Below are positions 19,787-45,767 of a DNA stretch of 64,000 nucleotides, piece after piece (the first letter of the stretch is position 1; every line of letters starts with the position of its first letter). Origin of the DNA: Acidimicrobiia bacterium. GTDB taxonomy: Bacteria; Actinomycetota; Acidimicrobiia; Spongiisociales; ZC4RG35. Made by a program: the position numbers and the translations under genes. Location: assembly GCA_041748855.1 (NCBI GenBank), contig JBGTCK010000017.1, positions 8,124 to 72,123 of the forward strand, read 5' to 3'. The notes under the pieces are model-generated. The model was not told the DNA's origin, did not search any database, and saw nothing but the letters and a program-made list of their open reading frames with translations.

Positions 19787-22354
19787 ATGTTCACCGACAT
19801 AGAGGGGTCGACGCGCCTGCTCGGGTTACTCGGCGACGAGTATGGACAGCTGCTGGCGGATCACCATCGGCTGATCGTCGCTGCCGCAGAGAAGGAACAG
19901 GGTGTACTGGTCGACACCCAGGGCGACGCCTGCTTCATCGTGTTTCCGACCGCCTCCCAGGCAGTCGCAGCGGCGGCTGAAATTCAGCAAGCCCTGTCCA
20001 CCCATGCCTGGCCGGGCGGGGTCGAAGTCAGAGTCCGGGTGGGCCTCCACACGGGTTCCCCGATACAGATGGACGATCGGTACGTGGGGATGGACGTCCA
20101 TCGGGCCGCTCGAATCTCCGCCGCCGCTCACGGTGGCCAGGTGGTCGCCTCGGCGTCTACCGTCCAGCTGTCGGAAGAGGGCCCATCGTGGCTCGCCCTG
20201 GGCGACTTCCGGCTCAAGGATCTCATGCGTCCCGAGCGCCTCTACCAGCTGGTGGCGACGGGGCTGGCCGAACACCACCCGCCGCTGCGGGCGGATCGAT
20301 GGGGGACGGAGCTCCCCGAACCTCCCACACGCTTTGTGGGTCGGGCCACGGCGGTCGAGGAGGTCCTCGAGATGCTGTCTGGGGAGACCAGATTGGTCAC
20401 ACTGGTCGGGCCGGGCGGGATCGGCAAGACCAGATTAGCGGTCCACGTGGGTCGGTTGTGGTCCGACCGCTTCACCGATGGCATCCAGTTCGTCCCCCTC
20501 GCCGCCCTGACCGAACCGGAGGTGATGACTGCCATCGTGGAGGCGTTGGGGGTTACCCAGATCGGGTCCGACGATCCCATGGGTTTGGTAGTCCAGCACC
20601 TGCGCCATCGCCGGATGCTTCTGATCCTCGACAACATGGAACATCTCGTGCCCGCAGCGGGCCGTCTGGTAGCGGACCTGATGCGCGGCTGCCCGGATCT
20701 GCGCATCGTCGCCACCTCACGTGCTCCGGTCGGTGTCTCAGGCGAGCAGCTGATGAGGGTGCCTGCCCTTGCCCTGCCCTCTGAGGATGTCGAACTCGCT
20801 GCCGCCGCCGAGTTCGAAGCGGTTGCCCTGTTCGTGGACAGGGCCCGGACGGTCGACCCGGGTTTCAGATTGACCGACGGCAACCTCGATGCGGTGGTGC
20901 AGATCTGCCGTCGGCTGGACGGACTCCCGCTCGCCCTGGAGTTGGCTGCCGCTCGGACGGCCGTGCTGGCACCAGCCGAACTCCTCGATCGTCTACGCCT
21001 GGATCTCCTGACAAGCAGTTCGACTGACCTCGACGAGCGGCAGCGTACGTTGGCTTCGACCATCGAGTGGAGCTACCGGTTGCTCGACCACTCGCTACAG
21101 CGAGTATTCCGCGAGTTCTCGGTGTTCGCCGGTGGCGCCACGCTGGAGGACACAGGAGCTGTGATCGACCCGGGTGGTGCGACCGATACCCTCGAGGCGG
21201 TCTCGAATCTCGTCGCCAGCAGCCTGCTGTGGCGTGACGAAGATGAAGGAGGGACGTCGCGTTTTCGGATGCTCGAGATCATTAGAGAGTTCGCCCAGCG
21301 CGAGCTCGACCGCTCAGGCGACCTCCCGGCAGTCGCAGACCGGCACGCCGCCAGATTCGCCGAGTTCCTCGAGACGGCCGAAGAGAAGGTGGACGGACCC
21401 GAAGCATCGGAGTGGATGGCGAGGATCGACGCCGAGATGTCGAACACACGGGCCGCCCTCCGCTGGACCTTGGAGGACCCTCGCGGCTCCAGGCTCGCTG
21501 GTGTGAGTATGGCGCAGTCCTTAGGTTGGTTCTGGTACATTCGCGGCCATGCCAGCGAAGGGCTCCGGTGGCTGGAGTCGGCTATCCTGGCCGCAAACGA
21601 TGCGCCCGGACTCCACCGCATCCGAGTCACCTATTACGCCGGCGCCCTGGCTGAAAGGCTGGGACGGTTCCCCGAAGCAGTGCAGCGGTTCCAACAGACT
21701 TTGGTGCTCTGTCGAGAGTTGGGCGACGAGGCGCGCGCAGGGAGAGCGCTCAACTCGCTGGGAGGCATGGCCGTCGAAATGGGAGAGCACGAAGCGGCGA
21801 CGGGATACCTCGCCGAAGCGGAGGAGATCCTACTCTCTCACGACGACAAGTACGGGCTCGGGGCAAACCGGACAAACCAGTGCGACGTGGCCCTCGCTCG
21901 CGGGGAACTCGACCGGGCCCGACAACTGGGCGAGTCGGCGCTCAGCCTGTTCTCAACGTCGGACGACGCATTCGGGGAGGGCGTGGCTTTGCGACACCTC
22001 ACCAAGGTTGCCTACGCCGCTGGGGACCTGGAAGAGGTCCGAAGGCTGCTAAAAGGCGCCCTCACCAAGGGACTCGAGATCGGGAACCTTGCCGACTCAG
22101 CTCGATGCCTGGAACGGCTGGGCGGTGTGGAGATCGCCTTAGGACGCAGCGCCAAGGGGATCCGACTGGGGGCGGCCGCTCAGCGGCTCCGTAGCGAGGT
22201 CGGCGACCATCTGACACCAGACCGGCTGGCCAGCTTCGAACGAAGCTGGTCGCAGGCTCGACTGGTTCTGGGCGAAGAGGAATATCAGACTGCGTGGGAC
22301 CAGGGTTCCAACATGACCTTCGATCAGGCCGTTGCTTACGGCACTGAGAACTGA
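19787..22354 (+). CDS. class III adenylate/guanylate cyclase domain + STAND/AAA NTPase + TPR repeats
   Basis: N-terminal FTDIEGSTRLL cyclase motif; Walker A LVGPGGIGKTRLA; C-terminal TPR-like repeats; 855 aa. Confidence 0.8.
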   Translation: MFTDIEGSTRLLGLLGDEYGQLLADHHRLIVAAAEKEQGVLVDTQGDACFIVFPTASQAVAAAAEIQQALSTHAWPGGVEVRVRVGLHTGSPIQMDDRYVGMDVHRAARISAAAHGGQVVASASTVQLSEEGPSWLALGDFRLKDLMRPERLYQLVATGLAEHHPPLRADRWGTELPEPPTRFVGRATAVEEVLEMLSGETRLVTLVGPGGIGKTRLAVHVGRLWSDRFTDGIQFVPLAALTEPEVMTAIVEALGVTQIGSDDPMGLVVQHLRHRRMLLILDNMEHLVPAAGRLVADLMRGCPDLRIVATSRAPVGVSGEQLMRVPALALPSEDVELAAAAEFEAVALFVDRARTVDPGFRLTDGNLDAVVQICRRLDGLPLALELAAARTAVLAPAELLDRLRLDLLTSSSTDLDERQRTLASTIEWSYRLLDHSLQRVFREFSVFAGGATLEDTGAVIDPGGATDTLEAVSNLVASSLLWRDEDEGGTSRFRMLEIIREFAQRELDRSGDLPAVADRHAARFAEFLETAEEKVDGPEASEWMARIDAEMSNTRAALRWTLEDPRGSRLAGVSMAQSLGWFWYIRGHASEGLRWLESAILAANDAPGLHRIRVTYYAGALAERLGRFPEAVQRFQQTLVLCRELGDEARAGRALNSLGGMAVEMGEHEAATGYLAEAEEILLSHDDKYGLGANRTNQCDVALARGELDRARQLGESALSLFSTSDDAFGEGVALRHLTKVAYAAGDLEEVRRLLKGALTKGLEIGNLADSARCLERLGGVEIALGRSAKGIRLGAAAQRLRSEVGDHLTPDRLASFERSWSQARLVLGEEEYQTAWDQGSNMTFDQAVAYGTEN

Positions 22355-22530
22355 GAACTCAGCGTCTCCGACCTTCCCGACAAGCCTCGACAGTGCCCGA
22401 CCGTGGCGGGCAAGTCTGCCAGCCACTCACGCGGTCACTCCTGACCACGCAACCACCACCGCCATCGAGCAGACCCAAGTCCCCGATTCGATCATCTCGT
22501 TAACCCATAAGCCACTCGTACGCAGAGGGC

Positions 22531-22727
22531 GCAGTTTCCCAAGTGTTACCTGATGATTTGAAGCTCAGCGGGTAGGACTCGAACCTACAACCAATGGATA
22601 ACAGTCACGCCGATACCGTCCGTGGTCTCAAGGGGTGTCGATTAGTGCCGTTCTCCACCTTTTCGTCCGTCCGTGTTGGCTGATGCTGTCCCGTGCGGTC
22701 TGGTATGGCTACACAAATGGTACACCC
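22531..22727. repeat. copy 1 of the roughly 250-bp tRNA-Asn-fragment repeat (lacks the left TGGCTACA doublet)
   Basis: Shares the flanks ...tttcccaagtg.tacctga.ga..ttg.agctc and cacgccgataccgtccgtg...gctgatgctgtcccgtgcggtctggtatggctacacaaatgg with copies at 23.6 and 25.9 kb. Confidence 0.7.
22566..22604 (-). pseudogene. tRNA-Asn(GUU) 3' fragment (anticodon loop to acceptor 3' strand), degenerate
   Basis: The reverse complement contains T-stem/loop gtaggTTCGAGTcctac and an anticodon-loop remnant; 1-nt deletion relative to copies 2 and 3; no D-arm or 5' half. Confidence 0.5.
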
Positions 22728-22934
22728 GAAGTGCGATGCGGTCGCCGTGAGCTCAGCGATATTGCCGGATCTGCGTGCCTCCACCCCCGACGCGGTCTTT
22801 ACCGAGTAAGGTCGGGGCGAGCCGCCAAAGCACCAAGATGGCCCAGTCCATGAGTGCTTCCCGGCTGTGTCTGTATCGCCATTGACAAGCAGGGCGTGCG
22901 GCGTCAATCGCACGAAGCCAGAAGGAGACCTTTG

Positions 22935-23531: not shown

Positions 23532-23645
23532 CGGATCTCGGCAAAGTGCGAGTGCCCAGGTGAACGCCAACGCCCGACGTTCCGTTTCCTTGACCGCTGT
23601 GCTGGCGGAGTTTCCTGGGCGGCTTGGTCAGCAACGGGAAACTGG

Positions 23646-23897
23646 ATGGCTACAGGTTGGCTACGCACGAACCGTTTGAACGCCAAAGCGAAAGTCGCAT
23701 TTTCCCAAGTGCCTGATGAAATTGAGGCTCCGCGGGTAGGACTCGAACCTACAACCAATGGATTAACAGTCACGCCCACACCGTCCGTGTGGTCTCAGGG
23801 GTGTCGGTTAGTGCCTTTCTGTCTACCTTTTCGTGCCCTACGTGTTGGCTGATGCTGTCCCGTGCGGTCTGGTATGGCTACACATTTGGCTACACCT
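23646..23897. repeat. copy 2 of the tRNA-Asn-fragment repeat (TGGCTACA doublets on both sides)
   Basis: atggctacaggttggctac ... core ... atggctacacatttggctacacc; about 90% identical to the copy at 25.9 kb. Confidence 0.75.
23728..23769 (-). pseudogene. tRNA-Asn(GUU) 3' fragment
   Basis: Minus strand reads CTGTTAA (anticodon loop, GTT) - tccat - tggtt - gtaggTTCGAGTcctac - ccgcgga - g; the 5' half does not pair, so this is not a complete tRNA. Confidence 0.6.
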
Positions 23898-24361
23898 TCC
23901 CACGAGCCTCCAAATCAGATCACCTGACGACCCACGACCTGGATCAAAGCGAACATCGGTGCTACGAGAACCATTGCTGTTGCGATTGTGCGCACGCGGC
24001 CTGGTGATGTCATCTTCACGACGGCTACGGGAATCAAGCCTGCCGCAAGTAACAACGGAACCGAAATAGCTAATCCCCCGGGTCCGGGTTCGGCTGAGAA
24101 CGCCGCTCCGATTGACAAGGCGGCGCTCAGATAGAGTAGGACGAAGTAGCCCCCGACCTTCAGCCACTCGACTTCCCCCCATCTCATCTGGAGATGGTAA
24201 ACGTTTGCCCCACACGGTGAAGCCGTCATACCCGGCGACGCGGTCGGCAATTGGAACCACAGGTGCTCTGCGTCCCTTGATCTCAGCATCGACTGCGTTC
24301 GTGAAAAGGTCACTCCCGTATGACGGTGGATGTGCCGACTTAGGCGCGCAGCCGGTGTGCA

Positions 24362-25117
24362 CTACTGGACTTCTGCTGTTAGCAACCGGTAGGCGGCGCG
24401 GCCTCGGGCAGCAGCCTCTGCCCCGAGAATCTGCCAGGCTGGATTGTCGGGGTCGTCCATCTCAGTCCGTGAGCGCAGACGCTGCCTGTCCTTACGGTCG
24501 AGTGCGGCAGCCACTCCCCCAGGATCATCCATGATGCTGAGCAGAAAGGCGAGGTCGGCTCTTTGGGCGTCGGGTGCATCATCGACTCCGACGGCTTCGG
24601 CCTTAGCAATGATGGCGCCCAGCAGCGATGGTCGAGGAACCAAACCTTCGGCATCACCAACACGCACTGGAACCAACTCGGTTCGAATGAGGGCTTGTGT
24701 GCCGCCTGGCACCTCCAGCGTCCTACCCGGCGGAGTGGTTGTCAGGTCGGCTCGCGGTCCAAGTCCTTCGGGTGCAAGCACGTCCACTGAGACGCCTTCG
24801 CGCTCATAGCGATGCGCCAGGCCGTCCGCCGAGAAACCTACAACTACAAAACCACGCTCCTCGATGGACTCGACAAAACTTCGGATCGCTCCGGTGACAA
24901 CTCGAGCGTCAACGAGCACATCGAGGTCAGTAGACACACGAGGAGGGCTCGCTGCCTGTTCGAGCGCGTGCAGGAAAACCATCTGTCCGCCGACGAGTGT
25001 CCACTCCCCTTTTCGCACTTCGGTCAGTTCGACAAGAGTTTCCCAAAGGTGGCGACTCTGGTCGGGATAGGTGGGCAACTCCACCGGTTCACGATCCAGC
25101 ACCGGCCACTCGGTCAT
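24362..25117 (-). CDS. AbiEii-like nucleotidyltransferase (putative type IV TA toxin)
   Basis: Minimal NTase motif LVGGQMVFLH...STDLDVLVD (hG[GS]...DhD); start at MTEWPV gives an ATGA overlap with the upstream gene. Confidence 0.5.
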   Translation of the reverse strand: MTEWPVLDREPVELPTYPDQSRHLWETLVELTEVRKGEWTLVGGQMVFLHALEQAASPPRVSTDLDVLVDARVVTGAIRSFVESIEERGFVVVGFSADGLAHRYEREGVSVDVLAPEGLGPRADLTTTPPGRTLEVPGGTQALIRTELVPVRVGDAEGLVPRPSLLGAIIAKAEAVGVDDAPDAQRADLAFLLSIMDDPGGVAAALDRKDRQRLRSRTEMDDPDNPAWQILGAEAAARGRAAYRLLTAEVQ

Positions 25118-25788
25118 CTTGCCTCCAGCCTTTCGAGAAGCGCTCTCCCAGCTCTCCTTGATCGCTTGTCCGAGGAGTCGAGGAGATCGATGGCCACGAC
25201 CGGAAGCGGCGCCACCTTTTGGTTGGGGTCGAAAGGCCACACCGCGTCGTCCACCACTCTGATGTAGACGTTTGGCTGGTCGGGGTCCGATTCGAGGGCA
25301 AGACGCCTCACGACACCGTCGACTTCTGAGGCCGCCAAGTACCCCTCAACGACATCTCCGGGAATGAGATCGGCGCGGTGCTCGTCGACAGCACTGGCTC
25401 CTGACCTCACGAAACCCGGTAGACCCGCCAGCCGATCCAACACTGAAGGGTGGGCGTAGAAGCGACGTTCGTCTCCTCGGGCTCGCAGCTTGGCCACGAC
25501 TGACTCCAGACCCTCTTCGAGTCGTCGTCTTGCCCGAAGTAGCTCTACCGCTGATACCTCCGGTTCGTCATCGTTGGCGAGAGCAAGCAGCGCCCAAGCG
25601 GACCTCGAACTCCAAGGTCGGCCCACGTCCTGTTGGCGTCGTTGCGCTTCACGAACCGATCCCCGCTCCACGATCCACGCCCGACCCACTTGTTCCCCAC
25701 GAAGTAGCCCGTCGGCAAGCATCTGGCGAACCCGCCTAGGGCTGACCGCCAGTTCTTCTGCTACTTCAGAAACACTCAGGAGCGACAT
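25114..25788 (-). CDS. AbiEi-like antitoxin (N-terminal wHTH transcriptional regulator)
   Basis: N-terminus MSLLSVSEVAEELAVSPRRVRQMLADGLL (HTH); 224 aa; translationally coupled to the downstream NTase. Confidence 0.5.
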   Translation of the reverse strand: MSLLSVSEVAEELAVSPRRVRQMLADGLLRGEQVGRAWIVERGSVREAQRRQQDVGRPWSSRSAWALLALANDDEPEVSAVELLRARRRLEEGLESVVAKLRARGDERRFYAHPSVLDRLAGLPGFVRSGASAVDEHRADLIPGDVVEGYLAASEVDGVVRRLALESDPDQPNVYIRVVDDAVWPFDPNQKVAPLPVVAIDLLDSSDKRSRRAGRALLERLEAR

Positions 25789-25890
25789 GATTTCATAATC
25801 CTACCGATATCGGTAGTATTATGTCAACACATCTGTTTAGCGGAGGGACCCCGGGAGATCGTCGAACAACAACACCATTTCGGAGAGCGG

Positions 25891-26147
25891 ATGGCTACAG
25901 GTTGGCTACACCCGAACCATTCGTACACAGGGGCGCATGTCGCATTTTTCCAAGTGCTACCTGAAGAAATTGGAGCTCCGCGGGTAGGACTCGAACCTAC
26001 AACCAATGGATTAACAGTCACGCCGATACCGTCCGTGTGGTCTCAACGGGTGTCGATTAGTGCCGTTCTGTCTACCTTTTCGGTCCGTGCGTGTTGGCTG
26101 ATGCTGTCCCGTGCGGTCTGGTATGGCTACACAAATGGCTACACCTG
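25891..26147. repeat. copy 3 of the tRNA-Asn-fragment repeat (TGGCTACA doublets on both sides)
   Basis: atggctacaggttggctacacc ... core ... atggctacacaaatggctacacctgcc. Confidence 0.75.
25976..26017 (-). pseudogene. tRNA-Asn(GUU) 3' fragment
   Basis: Identical in architecture to the fragment at 23728-23769. Confidence 0.6.
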
Positions 26148-26477
26148 CCCGAATGACCTAATTGCCACTCAGCGGTCGGCTGCTTGCATCCGCGACCACG
26201 ATACGTCAAGGAAATGGGGTGACGCGGCGCTCGCGATTCGGTCGAGTTCGGGTCGTCGCTGAGCTCGAGCTGGTGGTCACCGCCCCACCCCTCCGTCGCG
26301 ACCAGATTCCAATCTTGGGCGGGTCACATTGGGTCGTCGGAGGCTGAGCCGTCACGACGCGCGAGCCTCCACGAATGCACACCACGACCTATCTTCAGTT
26401 CGAGGTCCCGCGACCGATAATGGCCATGGTGAGTTCATGAAGCGAGGTCCGCAATCGACATCGTTCGTCTAATCCGA

Positions 26478-27563
26478 ATGACCGAGAAAGGAAGCAAGAC
26501 AGCGCTCTGGGCTGGGGTTGTGCTCCCTTCGCTCTTCCTGTTGTTCCCGCTTCTGCTCGGCTTGGCCACGATTGCGTTGTTGGTCGAAGCGGTATCGGGA
26601 GACGGTGAATGGGAGAAAGTCGGTGGCGCAGTGCTTTCCTTCGGCTTAGTCGCGTGGTTCATTGGAGCACCAGCTACGGAGGTCATTGGACAGGTCAGGC
26701 GGGAACGTACCCGCGACAAGGTGATGATCGACCGTCTTGGGTTAATCCTGCGAGCACACAGTGAACTCGATCAGGCAGAGGAACATCAAGATGGAGAGGC
26801 GGATGCTGAGAACGAGGACCCCGACGCTACATGGAGTACCGGGAGACGCGAGTTCGAAGAACCCGCCCTGGAGATCGACCCACCGGTCAGCCACCTCCTC
26901 GATCCAGAATCCGCTGGCGAGTCAGTAGCCTTTGAGCCGCAAGGCTCGGACGCGGCAGCTCCCGATGCCCTTTCGCCCTCGGCTGATACAGATGGCGGAC
27001 CTCGTCGACTAGACGAGAACGCCCAGGGCGAGTACGAGGTGTATCTCCTTGAGCGGTTGGCAGATGGGAGAGACTTTTTCTACTACCTTGACACGGCCAT
27101 CCAATTCGGGCTCAGATACCCCGGTAGGAGGTTTCATCACAGGTGGCCAGCCGCCTCAAATGCAGCGCTAACTAAGTACATCTCGAATCGTGATGACCTA
27201 GCCACCCCACAAGCGGCACAGGTGCTACGGGAGGTATACAGAGAGATTCAACCGCCAGAACTCGACACTGACCTTCAGGACTGGATCACGTCTGACGAAC
27301 CAGTCGACTCCCTCCTCCACGAAGTGGTTGTGACGACCGTGGGCGTCTTAGTGCGTAGAACGGGCGAACTAGACGATCTTGAACGCAAGAGGCAGGTGAT
27401 TTCCACTCGCGAGTTGGTTGCGGTGTCTCTGCTATCTGATGGCGACCCCAGGACCGAAGAAGTCGTCCACCGACTGGATGCCCACTACGAGGCTAGGCAC
27501 CTTAAAGATGAGCAGTACAACGAATTGAGAAGCTATGCCTTGAACCCTCGACCCTTTGGATAG
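26478..27563 (+). CDS. membrane protein: two N-terminal TM helices plus a large acidic cytoplasmic domain
   Basis: Hydrophobic stretches LWAGVVLPSLFLLFPLLLGLATIALLV and AVLSFGLVAWFIGA, followed by a D/E-rich region; no recognisable family. Confidence 0.45.
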   Translation: MTEKGSKTALWAGVVLPSLFLLFPLLLGLATIALLVEAVSGDGEWEKVGGAVLSFGLVAWFIGAPATEVIGQVRRERTRDKVMIDRLGLILRAHSELDQAEEHQDGEADAENEDPDATWSTGRREFEEPALEIDPPVSHLLDPESAGESVAFEPQGSDAAAPDALSPSADTDGGPRRLDENAQGEYEVYLLERLADGRDFFYYLDTAIQFGLRYPGRRFHHRWPAASNAALTKYISNRDDLATPQAAQVLREVYREIQPPELDTDLQDWITSDEPVDSLLHEVVVTTVGVLVRRTGELDDLERKRQVISTRELVAVSLLSDGDPRTEEVVHRLDAHYEARHLKDEQYNELRSYALNPRPFG

Positions 27564-27695
27564 GCGCACGCACACCGCCATGTATAAGGGGGGGTTCCCT
27601 CCACGGCCACCCTGAACGAGCGGTCGAGCGAGACTAGGTGCGTATGCGCTCTCGGCAAACGACTCTTTGCCGTAGTACGGGCCTACCCAATGGGC

Positions 27696-28223
27696 CTACC
27701 CAATGACGGGTGATCCGCCAGCTAACCCTTTGAGCCCATCGGGATATCTCTGGATCGATGCCGCCAGGTTCGCCGCCACAACGGGGTCGGCCTCATTCGC
27801 GTTGAGCCAGACACGCGCGGAGGTTGTCAGGTCTCTGCAGAACCACCGGACGTCAATGTTGATGACGTCCCCCATGACGTTGAGGTGAAACACGTTCGAA
27901 GAGTTGCCTGGTTCGTAGAAGACGACTCGTGAGTAACCACCCGGATGGCCGCCCGTCCTGGCCTGGTGAAGAAGCGAGCACCGAAACCCATATGCGGCTC
28001 CACCAGAGAAGAACGGCTCGTCCATGCGCGGAAGCTTGTGGCCATAGATGTCCGGCATGTTCTCGTCGAACCAGGCGGCATAGCGCTCTCCTGTCGCCAC
28101 GCCCGACTCGTGTCCGAGAGCGCCGAAGATGTCAGGAATGGCGAGGGCCGACACAAGCGCGACGTAGTAGTGGCCCCCATCGAGGGCGCCGTCTACCTGA
28201 TCGAGAAAATCACGCATGGTCAC
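27696..28223 (-). CDS. hypothetical protein
   Basis: 175-aa ORF, divergent from 28372..29208; coding-like composition; no family recognised. Confidence 0.4.
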   Translation of the reverse strand: MTMRDFLDQVDGALDGGHYYVALVSALAIPDIFGALGHESGVATGERYAAWFDENMPDIYGHKLPRMDEPFFSGGAAYGFRCSLLHQARTGGHPGGYSRVVFYEPGNSSNVFHLNVMGDVINIDVRWFCRDLTTSARVWLNANEADPVVAANLAASIQRYPDGLKGLAGGSPVIG

Positions 28224-28371
28224 TCGTCAGCCAAGTTATATCGAGGTCGACCGTATCGTGAGCGCCACCAAAGCACGCATTCGGCACATATCGGCGCCGG
28301 GGGTAGGCGCTCAGCCGGTCAGGTGGACAAGACGCGTGTGATCCGGAGTCTGTCGGTGGTATCTCGTAACA

Positions 28372-29208
28372 TTGGGCCCCATGGGGACGATAAATCGTCA
28401 TGACGCCCGTTCTCTCCCTGATGATGAGCGGTTAGCGAGAGAGGTGGTCGCGCCCCACATTGACTCGATCTTAGTGGCCCTCCCGGAACCGGGTAACGAA
28501 CCCACCCCCGACTTCGAGATGTGTCGGGACGGAAAGCGCGTCGGATGGCTGGAGGTAACCACCGGGACCGACCAAGCGTCGCAAACACTCAACGCTCAGC
28601 TCGAGGAGGCGGGTCGTAGGCGGCGGACTACCCGCCGTCTCCGGTGCGACTGGTTTCTACAGTTGACACCCGATTCCAATCTCCGAACACTGAACGAAGA
28701 GCGACTTTTCGACGCCCTCGCGTTAAGGGAGCCAACTTTGACTCCCTACCCAACCGCGATGATGGACCCGATCAGCATCCCTGAGTCTGACGCCATCCTC
28801 GCCAAATTCCACGTCGCCCGCGCTAATCCGTTGAACGCATCAGACGGCGACGAAGCCACGGTGCTCCTCGACATCAGCGGACAGATGAATAGGGTCGATG
28901 CGGACACGATCAATCGGCTCGCAGAACAACGGTGCGATGCCAAGCGCCCGCAGCTCGAAGGTCGACAGGGTGAGCGTCACCTCTTTGTCCGGGTCGATAA
29001 GTGGGAGCGGAGCGGAGCAGGCGTAGCAATGCACGGATTCGGTGACAACGAACCCCCGGTGCCCTACGAGGGTCCCACCTTCCCTGAGTGGGTTAGCGAC
29101 GTTTGGTTGCTGAACACCGTCGGGCAACCGAAACTCTGGCATTGCTCCCAGGCGACCGAGGCATGGAAGATCTACGACATCGATCCGGCGGTATTCAAGA
29201 GCGGGTAG
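28372..29208 (+). CDS. hypothetical protein
   Basis: 278-aa ORF; no family recognised. Confidence 0.4.
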   Translation: MGPMGTINRHDARSLPDDERLAREVVAPHIDSILVALPEPGNEPTPDFEMCRDGKRVGWLEVTTGTDQASQTLNAQLEEAGRRRRTTRRLRCDWFLQLTPDSNLRTLNEERLFDALALREPTLTPYPTAMMDPISIPESDAILAKFHVARANPLNASDGDEATVLLDISGQMNRVDADTINRLAEQRCDAKRPQLEGRQGERHLFVRVDKWERSGAGVAMHGFGDNEPPVPYEGPTFPEWVSDVWLLNTVGQPKLWHCSQATEAWKIYDIDPAVFKSG

Positions 29209-29479
29209 CCCAGATGCCACCCGACTGGCAATCCGTAGCGAGTAGAAGAACCCCCCGGCTCACCCGACCTCACTGAGATGCTTGGACGGCGTATCGGAGG
29301 GTTCTCTGCGTCCAGGGAATCGTTTGTGAATGTGACACCGCGGACGGACGGAACCCTACACGCCTGCAGAGGTGGGGGGTAACTCTGAAATCCCCTGCCC
29401 ATCCCTGCCCGTACCTGTAATCACCATGGAGATTCGGCATCCTGACCCGCATCGACTCGCTTCGTTCGCCGCACGGCTT

Positions 29480-29520
29480 AGTACCGACATCTCGGAACTG
29501 AGTACCGACATCTCGGAACT
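29480..29520. repeat. tandem duplication of a 21-bp unit (agtaccgacatctcggaactg)
   Basis: Two adjacent near-identical copies read directly from the sequence. Confidence 0.8.
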
Positions 29521-29907
29521 AACGCTTGACAATGGCGTGACGTATTCGGTGGCCCACATCGGCATGTATGTGGTGCAGTCGCTCACTTTCATCGCCCGAT
29601 GGGCTTGCATTTCGACAGGAAAAGAATCTGCCAGGGTGAAGGATTGACCGATTGAGATTTTTTAATCAATGATTCTCGCCGAGAGCTACGAGGATGATCC
29701 AGATTGGCAAAGGCGTCCTATTAGGTAGGTAGGAGAATCGGGTGCCTCTGGCCCCGTATTGCGTCGGCCCTAGAGGACCGGGAGACCGGTGCCCAGGCGA
29801 ACTCTGCGATGAGGGGAAGGAAGCAGGCTGGCATGAACAAGTCCGCTGCACGCAGTTGTACTTGAATTCGTACACCTGAGTACCTAGATTCGTACCTAGG
29901 AGGCGTG

Positions 29908-31773
29908 TCATGGCGTGTCGTTTTTGGAAGCTGTTGCCTGTTGTTGGGAGGATTTGTCAGGTTCTGGATCACAACCCAGGTAGCCGTCGGGGCATCGGGG
30001 CCGATGAGGACAGGGGTCGAGTTCTGGTGGAGGGGCGACCCCGCCGTCTTCTCCGGTTTGCGTCCTAAAACCGGGGTCCCATCCCAGGCTCTCTCGTTGC
30101 CTGACGGCGGCTCCGTAGGTTCCGTACTCCCGAGCCAGGCGATCGAGATCCTCTACGTTTTGGATTGTGGCGACGATTCCATGTTCAGTCTCAGCGACGA
30201 GGTCACCTTCGATCAGTTTCCTGACGTGTCTTCCGACCGTGGCTGGACTGACTCCCATCTCCGTAGCAATCGCCCTCCGCGACGGCTGTGCACCTATCAT
30301 CAGAAGCTCAAGTATCCGCCACCCGTTCTTTCCAATGCCGTAGTGGTATGAGTATCGGTGCCAGTTCGTAATGTATTTGCCTCGGACGGGGCCTCTAAAG
30401 AGGTCGTGTCCGATTGGGAGCTGGGGGTGTTGCAATACCTGAACGACTCCCCCATCCAAAGTAGGTGTGGACTCGTTCAGATCTTGCAATGCTGTTTGAG
30501 GTATCTGCAGTCTCCACCTGCTGGGTCGTTGTATCGAGTCACCCTTAAATAGAAGTTGGACCCATCCCCTGTGTTGCAACTCCTTTAGAGCTGTCATGAC
30601 AGTTTCGCTGCTTGAATAGCCGGCTTCCTGTTTGATACCCCTTACTCCTTTGGCGAAGTTGCTGGGTCCACCGGTACGCATTGCGATGCGGATAAGTGCT
30701 TCGAGGACTGTGATTTGTCGTTTTCCGGAGTGTCCTGACCACTTGAGGCTGTGTGCGACCACGCGGAGCTCGGTCAGATACTCCATCGCTTCTTCTCGGT
30801 TGTTGAAGGGGCTTTTCGATGGGCGAGGGTTCTGCGATCCTCTTTTCAGGCCACTGCGGATGGTGGGTTCTGCTTCAGTCCAGCTAAGTCCACACAAGGA
30901 AGCAGCCTCCTCGAGGTAGTGCCAGAAGATGTCTTCGTCTAGCCCGCCCTTTCCAACCAGTTCCCCGAGGGCACAAGAGGAGACAAAGAGCTGCTGGTTC
31001 CGCGTTCCCCTTTTTGCAGTCGCTGTCTTCTCGTACTCCCCTGCCACCGCAGCCCATACATATGGAGTGACTCCTTGAGGGGCGGGGAGGGCCTGCAGGT
31101 CGGCCACTAGGCCCTCGGTGAGCGCTGAGGGAAGTTCGGGGATCCTTCGATCAATATTTGTGGTCCACTCATAGACCGACCCGCTGACGTGGCGGCTTGG
31201 AGGCGCCGCAACATACCCGCCCCTCCCCCTCACGTCGATACCGGGAAAGCCATCGAGCACCGGCAGCGAGTTCCCGACTCGCCAGCCGTCAGCTCGAAAG
31301 TAGAGGTGGCGGCCACCTCCACCTGTCTGAACTTCGGCGGTCTCCGGCCAGGTGCCATAGGTCTCGACAAAGTGTCGCTCTGAGTCGTCGGACCCATGGC
31401 GCGGATCGAAGTCGAGGACGACCAATTCTCCAGTTGCTATCGCGAGATTGGAGTTCGGCGATCCCTTGAACACCTGGCGCATCAAGTATGCGTTGGAACT
31501 GGCGGCCTTACGCCATCCTCTCCGCCGGGGGTGTTTCCCCGGGCTCTCGCACTTGGAACCTCTCGGACACTCACATATCAAAGCTCCGTCGCTTTGGACG
31601 ACGCCGAACAGCATCACCATTCGCATGCTGAGGCGCGAGTACTGGTCAATCGCTGCGATGGTGGAAGTCAGATGATTGTCGTCGGGTGGCTTGCTCGTTT
31701 CACTCATAGCTCGAACAGTGCACCAAGCGGCGCGTATACTCCAGTAGACGAGCGTTACTTGACCGTGACGCAT
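29908..31773 (-). CDS. bifunctional DNA primase/polymerase (Prim-Pol) replication protein with C-terminal wHTH
   Basis: Prim-Pol N-terminal domain (LFGVVQSDGALICECPRGSKCESPGKHPRRRGW...DVRGRGGYVAAPPS); C-terminal MarR-like RRAIATEMGVSPATVGRHVRKL; gene GC content is visibly lower than the surroundings. Confidence 0.75.
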   Translation of the reverse strand: MRHGQVTLVYWSIRAAWCTVRAMSETSKPPDDNHLTSTIAAIDQYSRLSMRMVMLFGVVQSDGALICECPRGSKCESPGKHPRRRGWRKAASSNAYLMRQVFKGSPNSNLAIATGELVVLDFDPRHGSDDSERHFVETYGTWPETAEVQTGGGGRHLYFRADGWRVGNSLPVLDGFPGIDVRGRGGYVAAPPSRHVSGSVYEWTTNIDRRIPELPSALTEGLVADLQALPAPQGVTPYVWAAVAGEYEKTATAKRGTRNQQLFVSSCALGELVGKGGLDEDIFWHYLEEAASLCGLSWTEAEPTIRSGLKRGSQNPRPSKSPFNNREEAMEYLTELRVVAHSLKWSGHSGKRQITVLEALIRIAMRTGGPSNFAKGVRGIKQEAGYSSSETVMTALKELQHRGWVQLLFKGDSIQRPSRWRLQIPQTALQDLNESTPTLDGGVVQVLQHPQLPIGHDLFRGPVRGKYITNWHRYSYHYGIGKNGWRILELLMIGAQPSRRAIATEMGVSPATVGRHVRKLIEGDLVAETEHGIVATIQNVEDLDRLAREYGTYGAAVRQRESLGWDPGFRTQTGEDGGVAPPPELDPCPHRPRCPDGYLGCDPEPDKSSQQQATASKNDTP

Positions 31774-31900
31774 TGCGCGGGAACAATTTTTCGTCTTGGG
31801 GACCCGCCTTGATCAGAGTGAACCCTGTCCCCGAGAACGGTGCGGGGTCGACGAGGTTTGAAAACAATGAACGCAAACGAGCGTGATATGAAAGGCCCCC

Positions 31901-32800
31901 ATGGACCCGTTCTTGAGCCGAATCATCGGACTTGTTGCAACGCCGGTGCCGGTGAACGCCACGTCATACCAACTCCCCACCGAGGTGAAACTTGAGGAGA
32001 CCCTCGACGGCTGGGTGCTCGCCTGGCGTCGCGGCGGTCGGCGGAAGCAAGTCGGCGCCAGCAACGAACAATTGCTAGCCGAGTTCATGTCTCTGCAGGA
32101 CTCCGAGCCGGACCAAATCGCCGAGTTCGCATCTGAGTGGGGAGCCCTGCAACTCTGTAAACACGGCAAACCCCAGTCTCATTTACCTTGGCGTCTTTGG
32201 ACCGAACTCGACGAATTAGAAGCTGCACCCTGCGATGTGAACCGGGCCTATCCCGGAGGATGGAGACGCGAACCAATCTCTCGGTGGAATCACTATTCGT
32301 CGCAGGCAGGAGCCATCCGTCGCCTGGGGCGCAACCTAAGCTCCGGGAACTCGATCTCAATTGTGGATCTCGAACCCATGGAAGATCTATTTCCGCCCTA
32401 CTTCCTCGACCGGACAATTCCCGGAATTAGCGAACCGATCTCCGAGCCACCTGAATTCACCCGGCAGGATCATGAGAGGGTCCTGGCGACCGCTCTCCAC
32501 AGTTGGTTAGGTATGGGCGATGTCGGTTTCCATGTGAATTGGCGAGAGGGCAAGAGCTCAGTTCAATTCGGTGGTACCGGACTGTTCGGAGCTCTAGCCC
32601 TCCAACTGACACTCGTCTGCACCGGTGCCGGCGCGCTCTTCTTGTGTTCCGAATGCAGACTGCCCTACATCCCCGAACAGCAACCTCGCTCAGGTGAAAG
32701 GAACTACTGCCTCGACTGCCGCGATAAAGGCATACCTGCGAGAAACCGCCAGCGTGCACTACGCGCCCGACTTCGCGCTGAACGAAAATCTGAGATGTAA
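31901..32800 (+). CDS. hypothetical protein with C-terminal Cys4 zinc ribbon
   Basis: CSECRLPY...NYCLDCRDKG; divergent from the prim-pol gene. Confidence 0.4.
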   Translation: MDPFLSRIIGLVATPVPVNATSYQLPTEVKLEETLDGWVLAWRRGGRRKQVGASNEQLLAEFMSLQDSEPDQIAEFASEWGALQLCKHGKPQSHLPWRLWTELDELEAAPCDVNRAYPGGWRREPISRWNHYSSQAGAIRRLGRNLSSGNSISIVDLEPMEDLFPPYFLDRTIPGISEPISEPPEFTRQDHERVLATALHSWLGMGDVGFHVNWREGKSSVQFGGTGLFGALALQLTLVCTGAGALFLCSECRLPYIPEQQPRSGERNYCLDCRDKGIPARNRQRALRARLRAERKSEM

Positions 32801-32954
32801 CGCTCAAGTCACGGTCAACACCTGGACTTCTGCGCTTCGGTTGGCCACAGTGACCTCGGAAGGCGTAACACAGAGACGAGGAAAATTGAGCAACCGAACT
32901 ACAGGAGCGACGATCCCGCCGGAAACCGAGGATGTGCCGCTAGATCCAGACACG

Positions 32955-33188
32955 ATGCTGGCCGACTGGCTTCGGCATACCAGTGCACTAACCGTGCCAG
33001 TCTCCGCAGCAGCGGAGATCCTCGGAATCGGACGCACCACCGCGTATGAGTCAGCAAAGAGGGGTGAGATCCCATCGCTGCGACTAGGACGGCGGCTGGT
33101 GGTGCCCGTCGAGGGGCTCCGCGCGATGCTCGGTGTCCGGTTCGTTGGCCAGGGTGAGGTCGTCCCCAACCCAGAGCTGGGAGATTAA
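32955..33188 (+). CDS. xis: excisionase/Xis-like HTH DNA-binding protein
   Basis: LTVPVSAAAEILGIGRTTAYESAKRGEIPSLRLGRRLVVP is the canonical MerR-type excisionase HTH; start chosen at MLADW. Confidence 0.6.
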   Translation: MLADWLRHTSALTVPVSAAAEILGIGRTTAYESAKRGEIPSLRLGRRLVVPVEGLRAMLGVRFVGQGEVVPNPELGD

Positions 33189-33346
33189 AAAATGTCGCCA
33201 GCGAAAGACATCGTTTCGCGACCAATGGACTGGCTGTCACACGTTCCGTCAACCACTACCAGCAGAAACTGGGGATGTGTAGCCGGATGTGTAGCCATAG
33301 CCCGCCAAATCCGGCTCACGCAGTCCTCTCCGACCCAAGATGATCG

Positions 33347-34090
33347 GTGTCGGTCGTGACGGTGGACCAGGGACCAGCACGCCGTTCCGCGGAAGTAACG
33401 GACACGGCCACCCGCCTGAGCTTCGGTCCTCGTCTCTGTCGGGTTGAGGCCACCATTGTGGGCCCCAGGATGAAGCCGACGCCCCCGGGTTCTTCTGCAA
33501 TCCTGCGCTGGGCAAGGTATGCAGACGACTGGGAGACGCACCGAAGCCTCCCACTTGAACTAACCACCGGCGAACTCGGGGGCATCCTCCATGAGATCGA
33601 CGCCCAACTGACGCATGATCGCACACTCCTATCAGAGGAACAAGAGCACGAGCCTGAATGGCTTTCCGGCGGTTGGTATGACCTACTCGGTTTGGTTCAA
33701 GAAGTCCAGAGCCTGGTCGTGACAGCAAAGGAGTCGGAAGGTCAACTTGTTCCGATCTCCGTCGTGGTGCTTCCCTGGGACGACCCACTACTTCTCCCCG
33801 ATGACGGACCACAGAGCGAAGGTATCTGCGAGCAGACCGCCGATGACAGCGGATTCACCGTCAAGCTAAGTGAGTTCGCAACACCGTTCACGGTGATCCA
33901 TGCGTTTGCTCACATCCTGAACCCAGGAGACTCACAGCGGTTCGCCCACGACCGCGATTGGTTCTTCTGCTTCCTTGCCCTGGCGCTGAGGCGGTATGAG
34001 GGAGTCGAAATCAGCGGCTTGTTGGCTTCCCGAGATCCTGCTCGCCTTGTCCGCGCCCTCGAACGCCTGCCCGTCAACCGGTTCGGTTGA
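33347..34090 (+). CDS. hypothetical protein
   Basis: 247-aa ORF between xis and int. Confidence 0.35.
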   Translation: MSVVTVDQGPARRSAEVTDTATRLSFGPRLCRVEATIVGPRMKPTPPGSSAILRWARYADDWETHRSLPLELTTGELGGILHEIDAQLTHDRTLLSEEQEHEPEWLSGGWYDLLGLVQEVQSLVVTAKESEGQLVPISVVVLPWDDPLLLPDDGPQSEGICEQTADDSGFTVKLSEFATPFTVIHAFAHILNPGDSQRFAHDRDWFFCFLALALRRYEGVEISGLLASRDPARLVRALERLPVNRFG

Positions 34091-34322
34091 CCACGCCCAT
34101 GTCACGTGTACGTCCTCTCGACATGTCCAACATTTTGCAAAGAGCTCACCTCCGCGACCGCGGCCTAGCTAAGCCGAATAGCCGTCCTCTGATATCCAAC
34201 TTGAGGGAACCAGCGGGGAGCCTGTCACACGTCAGCCCAGCCGTTGCTGGCAGAAGCCGGGACCGTAGGGCCCGATCCTGTGAAGTCCTGCTCTCGAAGA
34301 TCCGTCGGACCCGGCATGATCG

Positions 34323-35492
34323 GTGCCGAGCATGACGGTATACAAACGATCCGGAGCGAAGTCTTGGTCCGTCCTAGTGGAATTCGGACGCGGCGCTGGC
34401 CACCGTCGTCGCGTTTATGAAGGAGGCTTCCGCACCAAACGTGAGGCGCTTGCGAGGGAAGTCGCGATCAAGGGAGACATGGCGAACGGCAGCTGGGTTG
34501 ACCTCTCAAACACGACCGTCGGCGACTACATGAAGAGCTGGCTTCATCAGCACGGCCACAACCTCAAGCCGACCACGGTCCAGTCCTATTCGGCAAACCT
34601 GAGGAATCATGTACTCCCCCAGCTCGGCCACATCCAACTCCAAGAACTCACCGCTGCACACCTTAACGACTTCTATGCCACGCTCCTCACCCAAGGACGA
34701 GTCAAGACCGGGTCTGACAAGGGCGGACCCCTGTCACCAACCACAGTCCGCTACATCGCCACCATCGTTGGAAAGAGCCTCCAAGACGCCCTCGAATCGG
34801 GTCTCGTTATCCGCAACGTCGCAGTCGCCGCACGCAAACCGCGCACGAGTCGAGAGGCGAACCAGAAAGTAAAGACCTGGTCCGGGCCTGAAGTGGCACG
34901 GTTCCTCGAATCCACATCCGAGGACCGACTTCACCCACTTTGGGTGCTCTACGCGACAACAGGACTCCGCCGGGGAGAAGCGCTAGGACTCCGATGGGAA
35001 GATATCGACCTCTCCCGCGGCCAGGCTTCCATACGCCACAACCTCGTAGTCGTGCGAGGCGGCCTCGAGTTCGGATCTCCGAAAAGTGGACGAGGCAGGC
35101 ACATCTCCTTGGCAACACAAACTGTCAACGCCCTCAGAGCATGGCGAGCTACTCAGGTAGCCGAAAAGCTGGCAATCGGCGCCGTATGGGCGGACCCACT
35201 AGGCCTTGTGTTTACACGCGAGGACGGATCGCCCATTCACCCAGACCGAGTCACCGACGCCTTCCGACGCAGCCAGAAGACCACTGAACTCCCAAAGATC
35301 ACGCTGCACCAGTTACGCCACACGTGGGCAACACTCGCCCTCCAAGCAGGCGTTCAGCCCAAGATCGTGAGTGAAAACCTGGGGCACTCTTCAATTCGCA
35401 TCACCATGGACATTTACAGCCATGTCTTACCCACAATGACATCTGACGCCGTCGCAAGGGTGGCCGATGCAATCTATGGGCAAGATTTATGA
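34323..35492 (+). CDS. int: tyrosine-type site-specific integrase
   Basis: N-terminal SAM-like domain; C-terminal catalytic LRHTWATLALQAGV...LGHSSIRITMDIYSHV (R..HxxR..Y). Confidence 0.9.
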   Translation: MPSMTVYKRSGAKSWSVLVEFGRGAGHRRRVYEGGFRTKREALAREVAIKGDMANGSWVDLSNTTVGDYMKSWLHQHGHNLKPTTVQSYSANLRNHVLPQLGHIQLQELTAAHLNDFYATLLTQGRVKTGSDKGGPLSPTTVRYIATIVGKSLQDALESGLVIRNVAVAARKPRTSREANQKVKTWSGPEVARFLESTSEDRLHPLWVLYATTGLRRGEALGLRWEDIDLSRGQASIRHNLVVVRGGLEFGSPKSGRGRHISLATQTVNALRAWRATQVAEKLAIGAVWADPLGLVFTREDGSPIHPDRVTDAFRRSQKTTELPKITLHQLRHTWATLALQAGVQPKIVSENLGHSSIRITMDIYSHVLPTMTSDAVARVADAIYGQDL

Positions 35493-35776
35493 CCTCTGAG
35501 AGTTGGATTCCGCACGCATCACCGGGGCCGACCCGAAACGAAATTCGTGAAATGATCCTTGCCTATGTGGACGTTCCGAAAGCCATCGACCATTTCGCAG
35601 TTGAGGGCGAATTGGACACTTTCGATTTGTGGTGGTTCTTCGACGATCATCGAATAATGGCTAACGCAAACGCATGGCTCATGGCGATGCTATGGGAGGA
35701 CTCGTTGAGCGATCCTGAGGAAGAGCTTCTGGCTGATCCATCCTTTTGGGAGTGGTTCGACCATGGGCGCCGATAG
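35489..35776 (+). CDS. hypothetical small protein
   Basis: ATGA overlap with the int stop codon; 95 aa, acidic. Confidence 0.35.
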   Translation: MTSESWIPHASPGPTRNEIREMILAYVDVPKAIDHFAVEGELDTFDLWWFFDDHRIMANANAWLMAMLWEDSLSDPEEELLADPSFWEWFDHGRR

Positions 35777-35856
35777 ACTGTATTCCCAGCAACGAGCCAG
35801 ATGATTGACTCGGCCCGCTCATTTCAGACCCATCTCGTGTGGTGGGCGGTGGAGGC

Positions 35857-36246
35857 TCAGCCGTAACAACCAGCTGTCTCCATTCGGGCGTCGATGCGGC
35901 TCATCAGACTGCTTAGCCACCGCATCGCATCGAGCTGAGACTGATTGCCGTGAGCGTTATCTGCCATGTCGAACCAAGACTGGAGGTTGCTGCAGTCGTT
36001 CTCGGTGGCGACCCACCCGTCGATGTTCTGGAACACCTCCGGGACCACGAAAGTAGCCGTGCTAGGTGCAGGGGACGTTGGCACAATATTGGTATCTGGC
36101 GACTCGGAATCGTCGCCATCGAAGATGAGTGCAACGACCACGAGCACACCGATACCGACCAGTAGCAAACGCCGGGTCCGGTTCATCCTTGGACCTCCAC
36201 TCGACTGTCGGACGTGCTCGTCGAAATCTCTCTTATCGAAGCTCAT
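35857..36246 (-). CDS. membrane-anchored hypothetical protein
   Basis: Single TM helix RLLLVGIGVLVVVALIF. Confidence 0.35.
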   Translation of the reverse strand: MSFDKRDFDEHVRQSSGGPRMNRTRRLLLVGIGVLVVVALIFDGDDSESPDTNIVPTSPAPSTATFVVPEVFQNIDGWVATENDCSNLQSWFDMADNAHGNQSQLDAMRWLSSLMSRIDARMETAGCYG

Positions 36247-45683: not shown

Positions 45684-45767
45684 ATGGCTACACAATGGCT
45701 ACACGCGGACATATGTTCGCAGTGGACCCGGTCGCATTTTCCTAAGTGCTACCTGATGAAATTGAGA
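45684..45767. repeat. partial copy (left portion, no tRNA core) of the tRNA-Asn-fragment repeat
   Basis: atggctacacaatggctacacgcgg...gtcgcattttcctaagtgctacctgatgaaattgag, then diverges. Confidence 0.6.

Follow-up and report, generated by a model that had tools for sequence, protein, structure and literature searches.

Do three adjacent, unannotated genes in the accessory island of an Acidimicrobiia-like genome work together, or do they only lie side by side? In the 64,000-nucleotide stretch analysed here (the window), three ORFs at 26478-27563 (A, plus strand, 361 aa), 27696-28223 (B, minus strand, 175 aa) and 28372-29208 (C, plus strand, 278 aa) were proposed in the original prediction as a candidate accessory or defence module. 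All three are present at these coordinates. The starts of B and C were set from homologue alignments and database entries; judged from these, the most likely start of B is ATG 28217 (173 aa) rather than GTG 28223 (175 aa), and that of C is most likely ATG 28381 (275 aa) rather than TTG 28372 (278 aa). The features of the region are as follows.

25882-26165, plus strand: att-like junction repeat, third and last full copy
26478-27563, plus strand: gene A, orphan 361-aa protein
27564-27695, no strand: convergent A/B spacer
27696-28217, minus strand: gene B, phrog_18591 member, 173 aa
28218-28380, no strand: divergent B/C intergenic region
28381-29208, plus strand: gene C, 275 aa
29426-29680, plus strand: region between C and the prim-pol gene, with a doubtful 73-aa ORF, a 21-nt tandem repeat (29477-29518) and an AT-rich tract
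29908-31773, minus strand: Prim-Pol and wHTH replicase of the integrative unit (context)
34323-35492, plus strand: tyrosine integrase of the prim-pol unit (context)

As had been described, the trio follows the last att-like repeat (25882-26165) and precedes the prim-pol gene (29908-31773). In this repeat the P-arm carries GGCTACA(C/G) pairs, the core is similar to the 3' half of a minus-strand tRNA-Asn, and the P'-arm carries TGGCTACAC-AAA-TGGCTACAC. Three such P-core-P' junctions are arranged in tandem, with short integrase-less units of 1.2 kb and 2.2 kb followed by an integrase-bearing unit, in an accretion island of ~23 kb (about 22.5-45.8 kb) of which the integrase/prim-pol element would be the largest unit. 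The last repeat would mark the left edge of the unit bearing A, B and C. The genes had been described as wedged between two elements, but they lie inside the unit that begins at the 25.97-kb junction, together with the prim-pol and integrase genes. The label 'low-GC' for the prim-pol element is marginally justified (0.56-0.57 versus about 0.60). In an independent assembly a single contig, matching the window at 100% identity, carries the integrase through C and B; A, B and C lie between the att-like junction and the core genes, physically linked to them. Because the trio is just inside the last att-like junction, its most fitting reading is as cargo that the integrase/prim-pol unit carries close to att, and its description as uncharacterised accessory cargo of a mobile-element island, directly after an att-like junction, stands. 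The boundaries of this unit are putative; the integrase side yielded no clean att site. Searches for tRNA, tmRNA and Rfam families were negative across the whole window and, as there is no intact tRNA, the tRNA-like att core is not tied to an intact target. Searches of metagenome and viral contigs gave no relatives of the prim-pol protein or element.

The strands run plus, minus, plus (A> <B C>), and gene order and strands give three transcription units. None of the three genes has a paralogue within the window, and a PADLOC-DB 2.0 HMM search with A, B and C matched zero families. The original prediction had named scattered, non-co-occurring homologues as the outcome that would speak against it, and this is what the neighbourhoods show: B homologues are solitary and C homologues never lie beside A or B relatives, so that relatives of the three genes co-occur in none of the sampled contexts of B and C homologues, although these homologues are not housekeeping genes. 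On balance it is probable that A, B and C are independent att-proximal cargo of an integrated element, with B a member of phrog_18591. They would have been gathered independently into the att-proximal end of a tyrosine-integrase/prim-pol element, as cargo genes that are unrelated and each transcribed on its own, and would not function as a trio.

Of the three genes, B alone is informative. It had been stated that none of the three proteins has an assignable motif; this holds for Pfam, NCBIfam and PADLOC, in which B has no match at E<=0.1, but B matches phrog_18591, a family of unknown function, over its full length (E=5.3e-30; residues 1-162 on positions 1-160 of a profile of 168). Searches of Pfam and PADLOC with 11-13 B-family members at E<=10 gave noise only, including one noise match for 13 members in PADLOC. 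B has conserved homologues (E 1e-40), and members of phrog_18591 are found in 43 phage records (by tblastn), 12 plasmids and 75 IMG/VR loci, the B family being present in at least four phyla and in phages. The model of B also has a structural match in BFVD to gp35 of Arthrobacter phage Nandita (E=1.6e-7, TM 0.71).

B homologues are solitary genes, and no recurrent partner appears in ~110 sampled contexts. Their neighbours are heterogeneous, the commonest being integrases (7/99) and lysis enzymes. In 17 of 50 viral contigs of at least 30 kb the homologue lies no more than 5 kb from a contig end (~11 expected), a modest enrichment, and in Bowser and Nandita it shares a leftward block with genes for the integrase and the repressor. 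The closest homologues adjoin T5orf172 and two MNT-HepT pairs, DUF4062 and a SoFic-like gene; plasmid homologues have Fic and HipA genes nearby. No conserved antitoxin partner for B was found, and no close counterpart of the B-like gene carried by E. coli phage ECP1 turned up in complete E. coli genomes. These contexts suggest that phrog_18591 is carried in variable regions of temperate phages, plasmids and integrative elements, near the integrase or att, after lysis genes or beside TA genes. Phage 'morons', or prophage accessory genes near att or the integrase (e.g. lambda bor and lom, and mycobacteriophage prophage-mediated defence genes), are likewise solitary and variably present, without conserved neighbours, at the lysis-att-integrase junction or beside the immunity cassette. 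The B family shows the same pattern in Bowser, Nandita, ECP1 and in Cetobacterium and Bacillus prophage regions; here, in contrast, the host of B is a prim-pol/integrase integrative element and not a tailed prophage.

Conservation in the B family was assessed over 57 distinct sequences that share 19-44% identity with B. Every sequence has P30, R81 and C82, and D31 and H86 are each kept in 98%, within a phrog_18591 signature of P30-D31, Y48, W51 and R81-C82-x2-L85-H86. The R-x4-H motif (R81 in 57/57, H86 in 56/57) has a spacing of exactly 4. Conservation is 95% for C33, 86% for C129 and 75% for H113, and the C33 position is F in the B of the window and A or G in close homologues. Most members are acidic (median pI 5.9). 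The AF2 model of B (pLDDT 80.7, with 62-68 locally at the motif) is mostly helical, with D31 in helix 29-36, R81 at the end of helix 74-83 and H86 in the loop after it; there is an insert between the D31 helix and the motif helix, and the motif is followed by an inserted three-strand sheet.

According to Anantharaman et al. 2013 (PMC3710099), HEPN domains have an R-x(4-6)-H motif at the end of core helix-3 or the start of the following loop, a polar N, D or H after the Arg and, near the motif, an acidic residue in helix-2. In the AF2 model the motif of B is likewise at a helix end and loop start, and its modelled layout would be that of the HEPN description (PMC3710099), whereas the position after the Arg is not N, D or H but C82 in 57/57. 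The HEPN superfamily, including HepT toxins, is further resembled in the near-invariant Rx4H at the helix end and loop start, in the conserved acidic residue that the model places in an upstream helix, in the insert between helices and in a family habitat of TA, defence and mobile elements; it differs in that B lacks a polar residue after the R (Cys), an MNT or other partner and profile-level similarity. From the motif and the mostly helical fold of the model we would tentatively read B as a HEPN-like, metal-independent RNase, a single-gene toxin or abortive-infection-type effector acting for the resident element, to which we give rather less than an even chance. In HEPN RNases two Rx4H motifs face each other across a dimer interface, and solved HEPN domains form a four-helix up-down bundle. 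Features of B that sit uneasily with a HEPN-like protein are the Cys after R, the sheet insert, the acidic pI and the lack of a profile match and of a conserved antitoxin.

The best PDB Foldseek match for the B model is to chains of AbiV, and it is non-significant (E=6, TM 0.34-0.39). AbiV of Lactococcus (PDB 9bj7; bioRxiv 10.1101/2024.05.05.592566) is a HEPN RNase toxin of a type III TA/abortive-infection system. Both proteins are small (AbiV 201 aa, B 173 aa) and mostly helical, both have R-x(4-6)-H at an equal relative position (91-RNHKSKH-97 of 201 in AbiV, 81-86 of 173 in B), and in both a core helix is followed by a flexible or low-confidence segment with the motif. The differences, besides that non-significant fold match and the lack of any Pfam, PADLOC or PDB-profile match for B, are that B has Cys where AbiV has Asn after the Arg, that a three-strand sheet follows the motif in B, that the surface composition of B is acidic and not Lys-rich, and that an RNA antitoxin of B was not identified. 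Profile searches of the PDB with the B and C families gave noise only (cellobiohydrolase, fatty-acid-binding protein).

The strongest alternative is that B is not a HEPN-like RNase and that its conserved Cys and His residues (C33, C82, H86, C129 and H113) form a metal or redox site, the protein serving temperate-element biology in another way, as a counter-defence, lysogeny-regulation or host-fitness factor. C82 is invariant, H86, C33 and C129 are conserved at 98, 95 and 86%, the family pI is acidic, and neither a HEPN profile match nor a significant fold match was obtained, all of which would fit such a site; so would the occurrence of homologues in virulent-looking positions and in one housekeeping neighbourhood. 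Against this, C33 is lost in the B of the window (F) and in close homologues (A/G) while the rest of the signature is kept, the invariance of R81 is left unexplained by a site for metal alone, and the position of the motif fits the HEPN description. We regard a metal or redox site as a real possibility that falls short of even odds. A wider claim is that phrog_18591 is a new, phylum-spanning candidate for a single-gene HEPN-like toxin or abortive-infection/superinfection-exclusion effector, absent from all current defence catalogues; its catalytic signature would be the unusual R-C-x3-H with an upstream P-D, as predicted from the family alignment. This wider claim we consider unlikely. B is the sole member of the trio with defence- or TA-like neighbourhoods and a nuclease-like motif, and a putative defence role is plausible for B alone. 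The resemblance of A to abortive-infection membrane effectors, suggested in the original prediction, is speculative.

ORF length is weak coding evidence on its own at ~60% GC, because random Markov-1 64-kb sequences also give long open frames (on average 35 of at least 175 codons, 2.7 of at least 278 and 0.29 of at least 361). The original prediction had allowed for spurious high-GC ORFs; this is improbable, since B and C have conserved homologues and the codon statistics of A resemble those of genes, and all three ORFs are most likely genuine. The codon log-odds of A are 0.185 bits/codon; known genes span 0.09-0.33 and antisense shadow ORFs -0.01 to 0.10. GC1/2/3 of A are 0.68/0.43/0.61, and the other five frames across A have 10-19 stops. 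A spurious ORF at A was rejected on codon statistics.

A rival reading makes A a long open frame that arose by chance in GC-rich sequence. Random sequence of like composition gives 0.29 open frames of at least 361 codons per 64 kb, a scan found neither a consensus promoter nor a ribosome-binding site, and a full-length homologue was found nowhere: among 5.8 billion clusters A matched itself alone, among 1.84 billion representatives a 97-aa fragment alone, and metagenome contigs held no relatives. That fragment (P0019), however, comes from another dataset and is 81% identical in protein sequence over A residues 176-245, although the contig carrying it was not found. The codon log-odds hold in all thirds of the ORF and exceed those of every shadow ORF tested, GC2 is low and gene-like, and the architecture is coherent, from two transmembrane helices through a basic to an acidic segment. 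A chance origin of A is very unlikely.

Hydropathy and charge bear out the proposed architecture of A, two N-terminal transmembrane helices and an acidic tail. There is a strong transmembrane segment at ~9-38 and a weaker one at ~48-67 (by hydropathy), then a basic juxtamembrane segment at 68-95 (7 K/R), an acidic linker at 96-185 (27 D/E versus 4 K/R) that is probably disordered, and a C-terminal domain of ~175 aa after the linker; the overall pI is 4.6. By the positive-inside rule both termini are predicted to be cytoplasmic. A would be a lineage-specific membrane protein with two transmembrane helices and both ends in the cytoplasm.

C has conserved homologues (E 3e-112) in a small family of five other clusters with 46-66% identity. 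Its genome matches are to Acidimicrobiaceae/Acidimicrobiia MAGs only, and no matches were found in phages or plasmids. The homologues lie in unrelated chromosomal or IS surroundings, in TetR, cupredoxin and HA-domain contexts (5 contigs) and next to IS110 and 7TMR-HD, never with B or A relatives. The N-terminal ~100 aa have a predicted alpha-beta-beta-beta-alpha-beta order, and E19, D47 and E61-x-T63 (E61-V-T63) are invariant in 6 sequences. C would be a lineage-restricted protein whose N-terminus may be a degenerate PD-(D/E)xK-like domain, a doubtful assignment. It is suggested by an E of helix 1 that never varies, a 'PDF' located at strand 2 and an 'E-V-T' within strand 3; in contrast to that fold, the canonical Lys is Thr in C, the model has a pLDDT of 39.6, and HMM and fold matches are absent. 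Scans of individual C-family members against Pfam and PADLOC at E<=10 gave noise only. The AF2 model of C is unusable at this pLDDT, and its Foldseek matches were disregarded as meaningless.

B and C are divergent neighbours ~160 bp apart, and the independent assembly, in which the contig ends just past B, connects both with the prim-pol/integrase backbone. This arrangement could reflect an element-specific two-gene unit with a common 163-bp control region, for example an effector with its regulator or immunity protein. The family distributions do not overlap, however, B being found in at least four phyla and in phages and C in Acidimicrobiia only; C has no phage or plasmid matches, and a C-like protein adjoins no B homologue. 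We hold such a unit to be highly improbable. The intergenic region presumably holds the promoters of both genes; no consensus promoter was found there, only short palindromes, and matches in the promoter and terminator scan were at chance level.

That A, B and C form one co-functioning accessory or defence module, for example with A as membrane effector, B as nuclease-like effector or sensor and C as partner, is scarcely credible: the genes are adjacent in a mobile-element island beside a putative AbiE-like pair, all three are unannotated, and B has a nuclease-like motif and defence- or TA-like neighbourhoods elsewhere, but the A> <B C> layout makes three transcription units with one convergent and one divergent junction, A is an orphan bar one fragment, B and C homologues are never adjacent or together in the contexts sampled elsewhere, and none of the three has a PADLOC match.

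The trio dissolves as a unit, which spares effort on a non-existent module. The pointer that remains is phrog_18591, an uncharacterised and broadly distributed prophage and mobile-element family with a sharp R-C-x3-H signature and TA- or defence-type neighbours, in which a new candidate function, single-gene phage exclusion or toxicity, could be tested at low cost.

The att-repeat array is a tidy case of mobile-element accretion in the Acidimicrobiia, a poorly studied actinobacterial class. Tandem accretion arrays consist of integrative elements and integrase-less CIME-like units with common att sites. The island resembles these in its three tandem P-core-P' junctions, which bound integrase-less units and then the integrase unit; it differs in having no intact tRNA target or clean terminal att in the window, and its mobility is putative. 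Within the unit, the scan found no terminator-like site in the convergent A/B spacer, and a perfect 13-nt tandem duplication (27679-27704) overlaps the stop codon of B. The region at 29426-29680, with its tandem repeat and AT-rich tract, is a candidate iteron or origin for the prim-pol replicase.

The original prediction proposed three uncharacterised open reading frames as an accessory or defence module, and all three are present:

26478-27563, + strand, gene A, 361 aa
27696-28223, - strand, gene B, 175 aa (173 aa from the ATG at 28217)
28372-29208, + strand, gene C, 278 aa (275 aa from the ATG at 28381)

Judging from homologue alignments and database entries, B probably starts at ATG 28217 and C at ATG 28381. 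In random 64-kb sequences drawn from a first-order Markov model of the window's composition, the mean number of open frames is 35 for at least 175 codons, 2.7 for at least 278 and 0.29 for at least 361, so the length of an ORF is by itself weak proof of a gene. Conserved homologues establish B and C as real genes: they are found in 10 other clusters for B (40-52% identity, best E=1e-40) and five for C (46-66% identity, best E=3e-112). No full-length homologue of A was found: there was only a self-match among 5.8 billion clusters, an exhaustive HMMER scan of 1.84 billion representatives gave a 97-aa fragment (81% identical to A residues 176-245) and one spurious match, and metagenome contigs contained no relatives. 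By these searches A is an orphan. That it is a gene is supported by this fragment, by an in-frame codon log-odds of 0.185 bits/codon in each third of the ORF (window's known genes, 0.09-0.33; long antisense shadow ORFs, -0.01 to 0.10), by its GC1/2/3 of 0.68/0.43/0.61 and by the 10-19 stops in its other five frames.

The data do not support the idea that the three genes form a module. A and B are convergent (132 nt from stop to stop) and B and C divergent (~160 nt from start to start), and this layout makes three transcription units. Homologues of B and C are scattered and do not co-occur in the contexts examined, which by the prediction's own criterion refutes a module; A is an orphan, and there are no paralogues of any of the three within the window. 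The relatives of C come only from Acidimicrobiaceae/Acidimicrobiia MAGs, a hint at the taxon of the window as well; in five contigs they lie downstream of a TetR gene, flanked by cupredoxin and HA-domain genes, and others adjoin an IS110 transposase or a 7TMR-HD protein. No B- or A-like neighbour was present in these contexts, and C has no match in the phage and plasmid collections.

The three genes lie in an accretion island; the att-like sites in and around it are:

18288-18348, partial att-like copy
22530-22747, att-like junction copy 1, full
23637-23916, att-like junction copy 2, full
25882-26165, att-like junction copy 3, full
33277-33297, inverted pair of sites
39040-39066, P'-arm remnant
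45684-45775, P-arm-only copy

The three full junctions are in tandem, 200-270 nt each, and both arms carry paired GGCTACAC-type sites. On the minus strand the core resembles the 3' half of a tRNA-Asn (anticodon loop CTGTTAA, T arm GTAGG-TTCGAGT-CCTAC); no intact tRNA or Rfam family was found in the window. There are 12 occurrences of GGCTACAC compared with 1.1 expected, all within 22.7-45.7 kb, and together with the att-like array they delineate an accretion island of ~23 kb. Its first two units (1.2 and 2.2 kb) have no integrase and are CIME-like. The second carries a putative HTH/AbiEi-like pair (24362-25788), previously called a TA module, just one half of which can be recognised. At its N-terminus the 224-aa protein resembles HTH_17/excisionase proteins, and it matches AbiEi_2 weakly (E=0.029); its 292-aa partner has no match in Pfam, NCBIfam or PADLOC.

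The third unit starts at 25.97 kb. Its contents are, in order, A, B, C, a repeat-containing candidate origin, a Prim-Pol gene, genes for a 299-aa protein, an excisionase-like HTH protein and a 206-aa protein, and a tyrosine integrase gene. Positions 27606-37840 recur at 100% identity in a contig of an independent Logan assembly, which physically links the integrase through to C and B. The three genes are therefore not wedged between two elements, as had been proposed, and are best read as att-proximal cargo of the third unit, in keeping with the earlier view of them as accessory genes of a mobile-element island. They are of a known kind, an integrative element's cargo or moron genes. Their lack of an assignable motif is not distinctive, because many other ORFs of the island also lack a Pfam match. 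A defence role is possible for B alone.

The Logan contig ends at 27606, between A and B, 73-90 nt from a perfect 13-nt tandem duplication (27679-27704, GGGCCTACCCAAT x2) that runs across B's stop codon, a hint that strains may vary at this point.

Along its entire length B matches PHROG family 18591, which is annotated as of unknown function (E=5e-30). Using tblastn the family was found in 43 phage records (35 Arthrobacter phages, Gordonia phage Bowser, and Acinetobacter, Escherichia and Bacillus phages) and 12 plasmids (Bacillus, Sulfitobacter, Cetobacterium and Klebsiella), and a pattern scan found 75 loci in IMG/VR. The gene is always solitary in the contexts examined. It lies in a leftward block with integrase and repressor or HTH genes (Bowser, Nandita), after a tail-fibre gene (B. 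cereus megaplasmid), after a holin with Fic and ImmA/HTH genes nearby (Cetobacterium prophage region), between lysis genes and terminase (lambdoid phage ECP1), near a HipA pair or IS elements (Sulfitobacter plasmids) and, in one MAG, among housekeeping genes. No partner recurs among the 99 neighbours that directly adjoin it in viral contigs; integrases (7) and peptidoglycan hydrolases or holin are the commonest families, followed by DNA methylases, SRAP, GDSL lipases and transposases. In viral contigs of at least 30 kb (n=50) the gene is modestly enriched near the ends, lying within 5 kb in 17 (~11 expected) and within 2.5 kb in 11 (~6 expected). These solitary contexts mark B as a typical moron, of the sort found in the variable regions of temperate and integrative elements, and its position 1.5-2.2 kb from an att-like junction fits this habit.

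The closest relatives of B (40-52% identity) are in conflict-system neighbourhoods; one adjoins a DUF4062 protein and one is near a SoFic-like gene. The closest homologue (52% identity; L096, ENA ERZ28573517 scaffold_145363, 491-3529; also L097) is directly downstream of a T5orf172/MUG113 protein and is followed by two tandem MNT-HepT toxin-antitoxin pairs, a compact conflict-gene cluster. In two Sulfitobacter plasmids there are unannotated gaps of ~1.3 kb directly upstream of the B-family gene (L013, 3703-4992; L020, 4687-5992).

Aligning 57 different members of the family (19-44% identity to B) gave these conserved residues:

P30, R81, C82: 100%
D31, H86: 98%
W51: 96%
C33: 95% (Phe in the window's B)
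Y48, Y78: 93%
C129: 86%
H113: 75%

The AF2 model of B is good enough to use (pLDDT 80.7, pTM 0.79) and matches the structure predicted for Arthrobacter phage Nandita gp35 (E=1.6e-7, TM 0.71). R81-x4-H86 is the HEPN R-x4-H signature. In HEPN proteins this motif is placed where helix 3 ends and the next loop starts, helix 2 carries a conserved acidic residue and helices 2 and 3 are often separated by inserts (PMC3710099); in the model D31 is within helix 29-36, residues 37-73 are an insert, helix 74-83 ends with R81 and C82, and H86 starts the loop. The best PDB matches are chains of the HEPN RNase AbiV (201 aa), whose motif 91-RNHKSKH-97 is in a flexible segment at the same relative position, but these matches do not come near significance (E=6-10, TM 0.27-0.39). 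Even at E<=10 the family has no match among curated HEPN or Abi profiles, and the Arg is followed by N, D or H in HEPN proteins whereas in B it is followed by an invariant Cys. Also counting against a HEPN assignment are a three-strand sheet after the motif, the mostly acidic family (median pI 5.9) and the lack of a conserved antitoxin partner. For these reasons B is not filed as a HEPN member. The main rival explanation is that B has a Cys/His metal site and another function. It is possible, with the balance somewhat against it, that B acts in the manner of a HEPN RNase toxin or of an abortive-infection effector. The uncharacterised phrog_18591, with its R-C-x3-H signature, is the one modestly interesting lead.

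The N-terminus of C has the predicted order alpha-beta-beta-beta-alpha-beta with invariant E19, 'PDF' (D47) and 'E61-V-T63'. In this order and in its acidic residues it may recall a PD-(D/E)xK core, although the Lys is absent. A structure model of C (pLDDT 39.6) was unusable and its fold matches were noise.

The layout of two TM helices and an acidic tail suggested for A matches its hydropathy and charge profile. Residues ~9-38 are strongly and ~48-67 more weakly hydrophobic, 68-95 are basic (7 K/R), and 96-185 form an acidic linker (27 D/E, 4 K/R) before a C-terminal domain of ~175 aa for which no relatives were detectable. The positive-inside rule predicts that both termini are cytoplasmic.

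Just 3' of the prim-pol gene, the region 29426-29680 contains a 21-nt sequence repeated in tandem (29477-29518, CTTAGTACCGACATCTCGGAA x2, one mismatch) as well as an AT-rich tract (~29650-29680), overlapping a doubtful 73-aa ORF (codon score 0.07). This region may be an iteron/origin of the third unit. Most other ORFs at 36-46 kb have no Pfam match; an ECF sigma factor gene (42752-43267) is inside the island and a DUF222+HNH endonuclease gene (47174-48475) just to its right. Directly left of the first att-like junction, 19787-22354 encodes an 855-aa protein with an adenylate/guanylate cyclase domain, a STAND-type NTPase (NB-ARC/NACHT/AAA_22) and TPR repeats.
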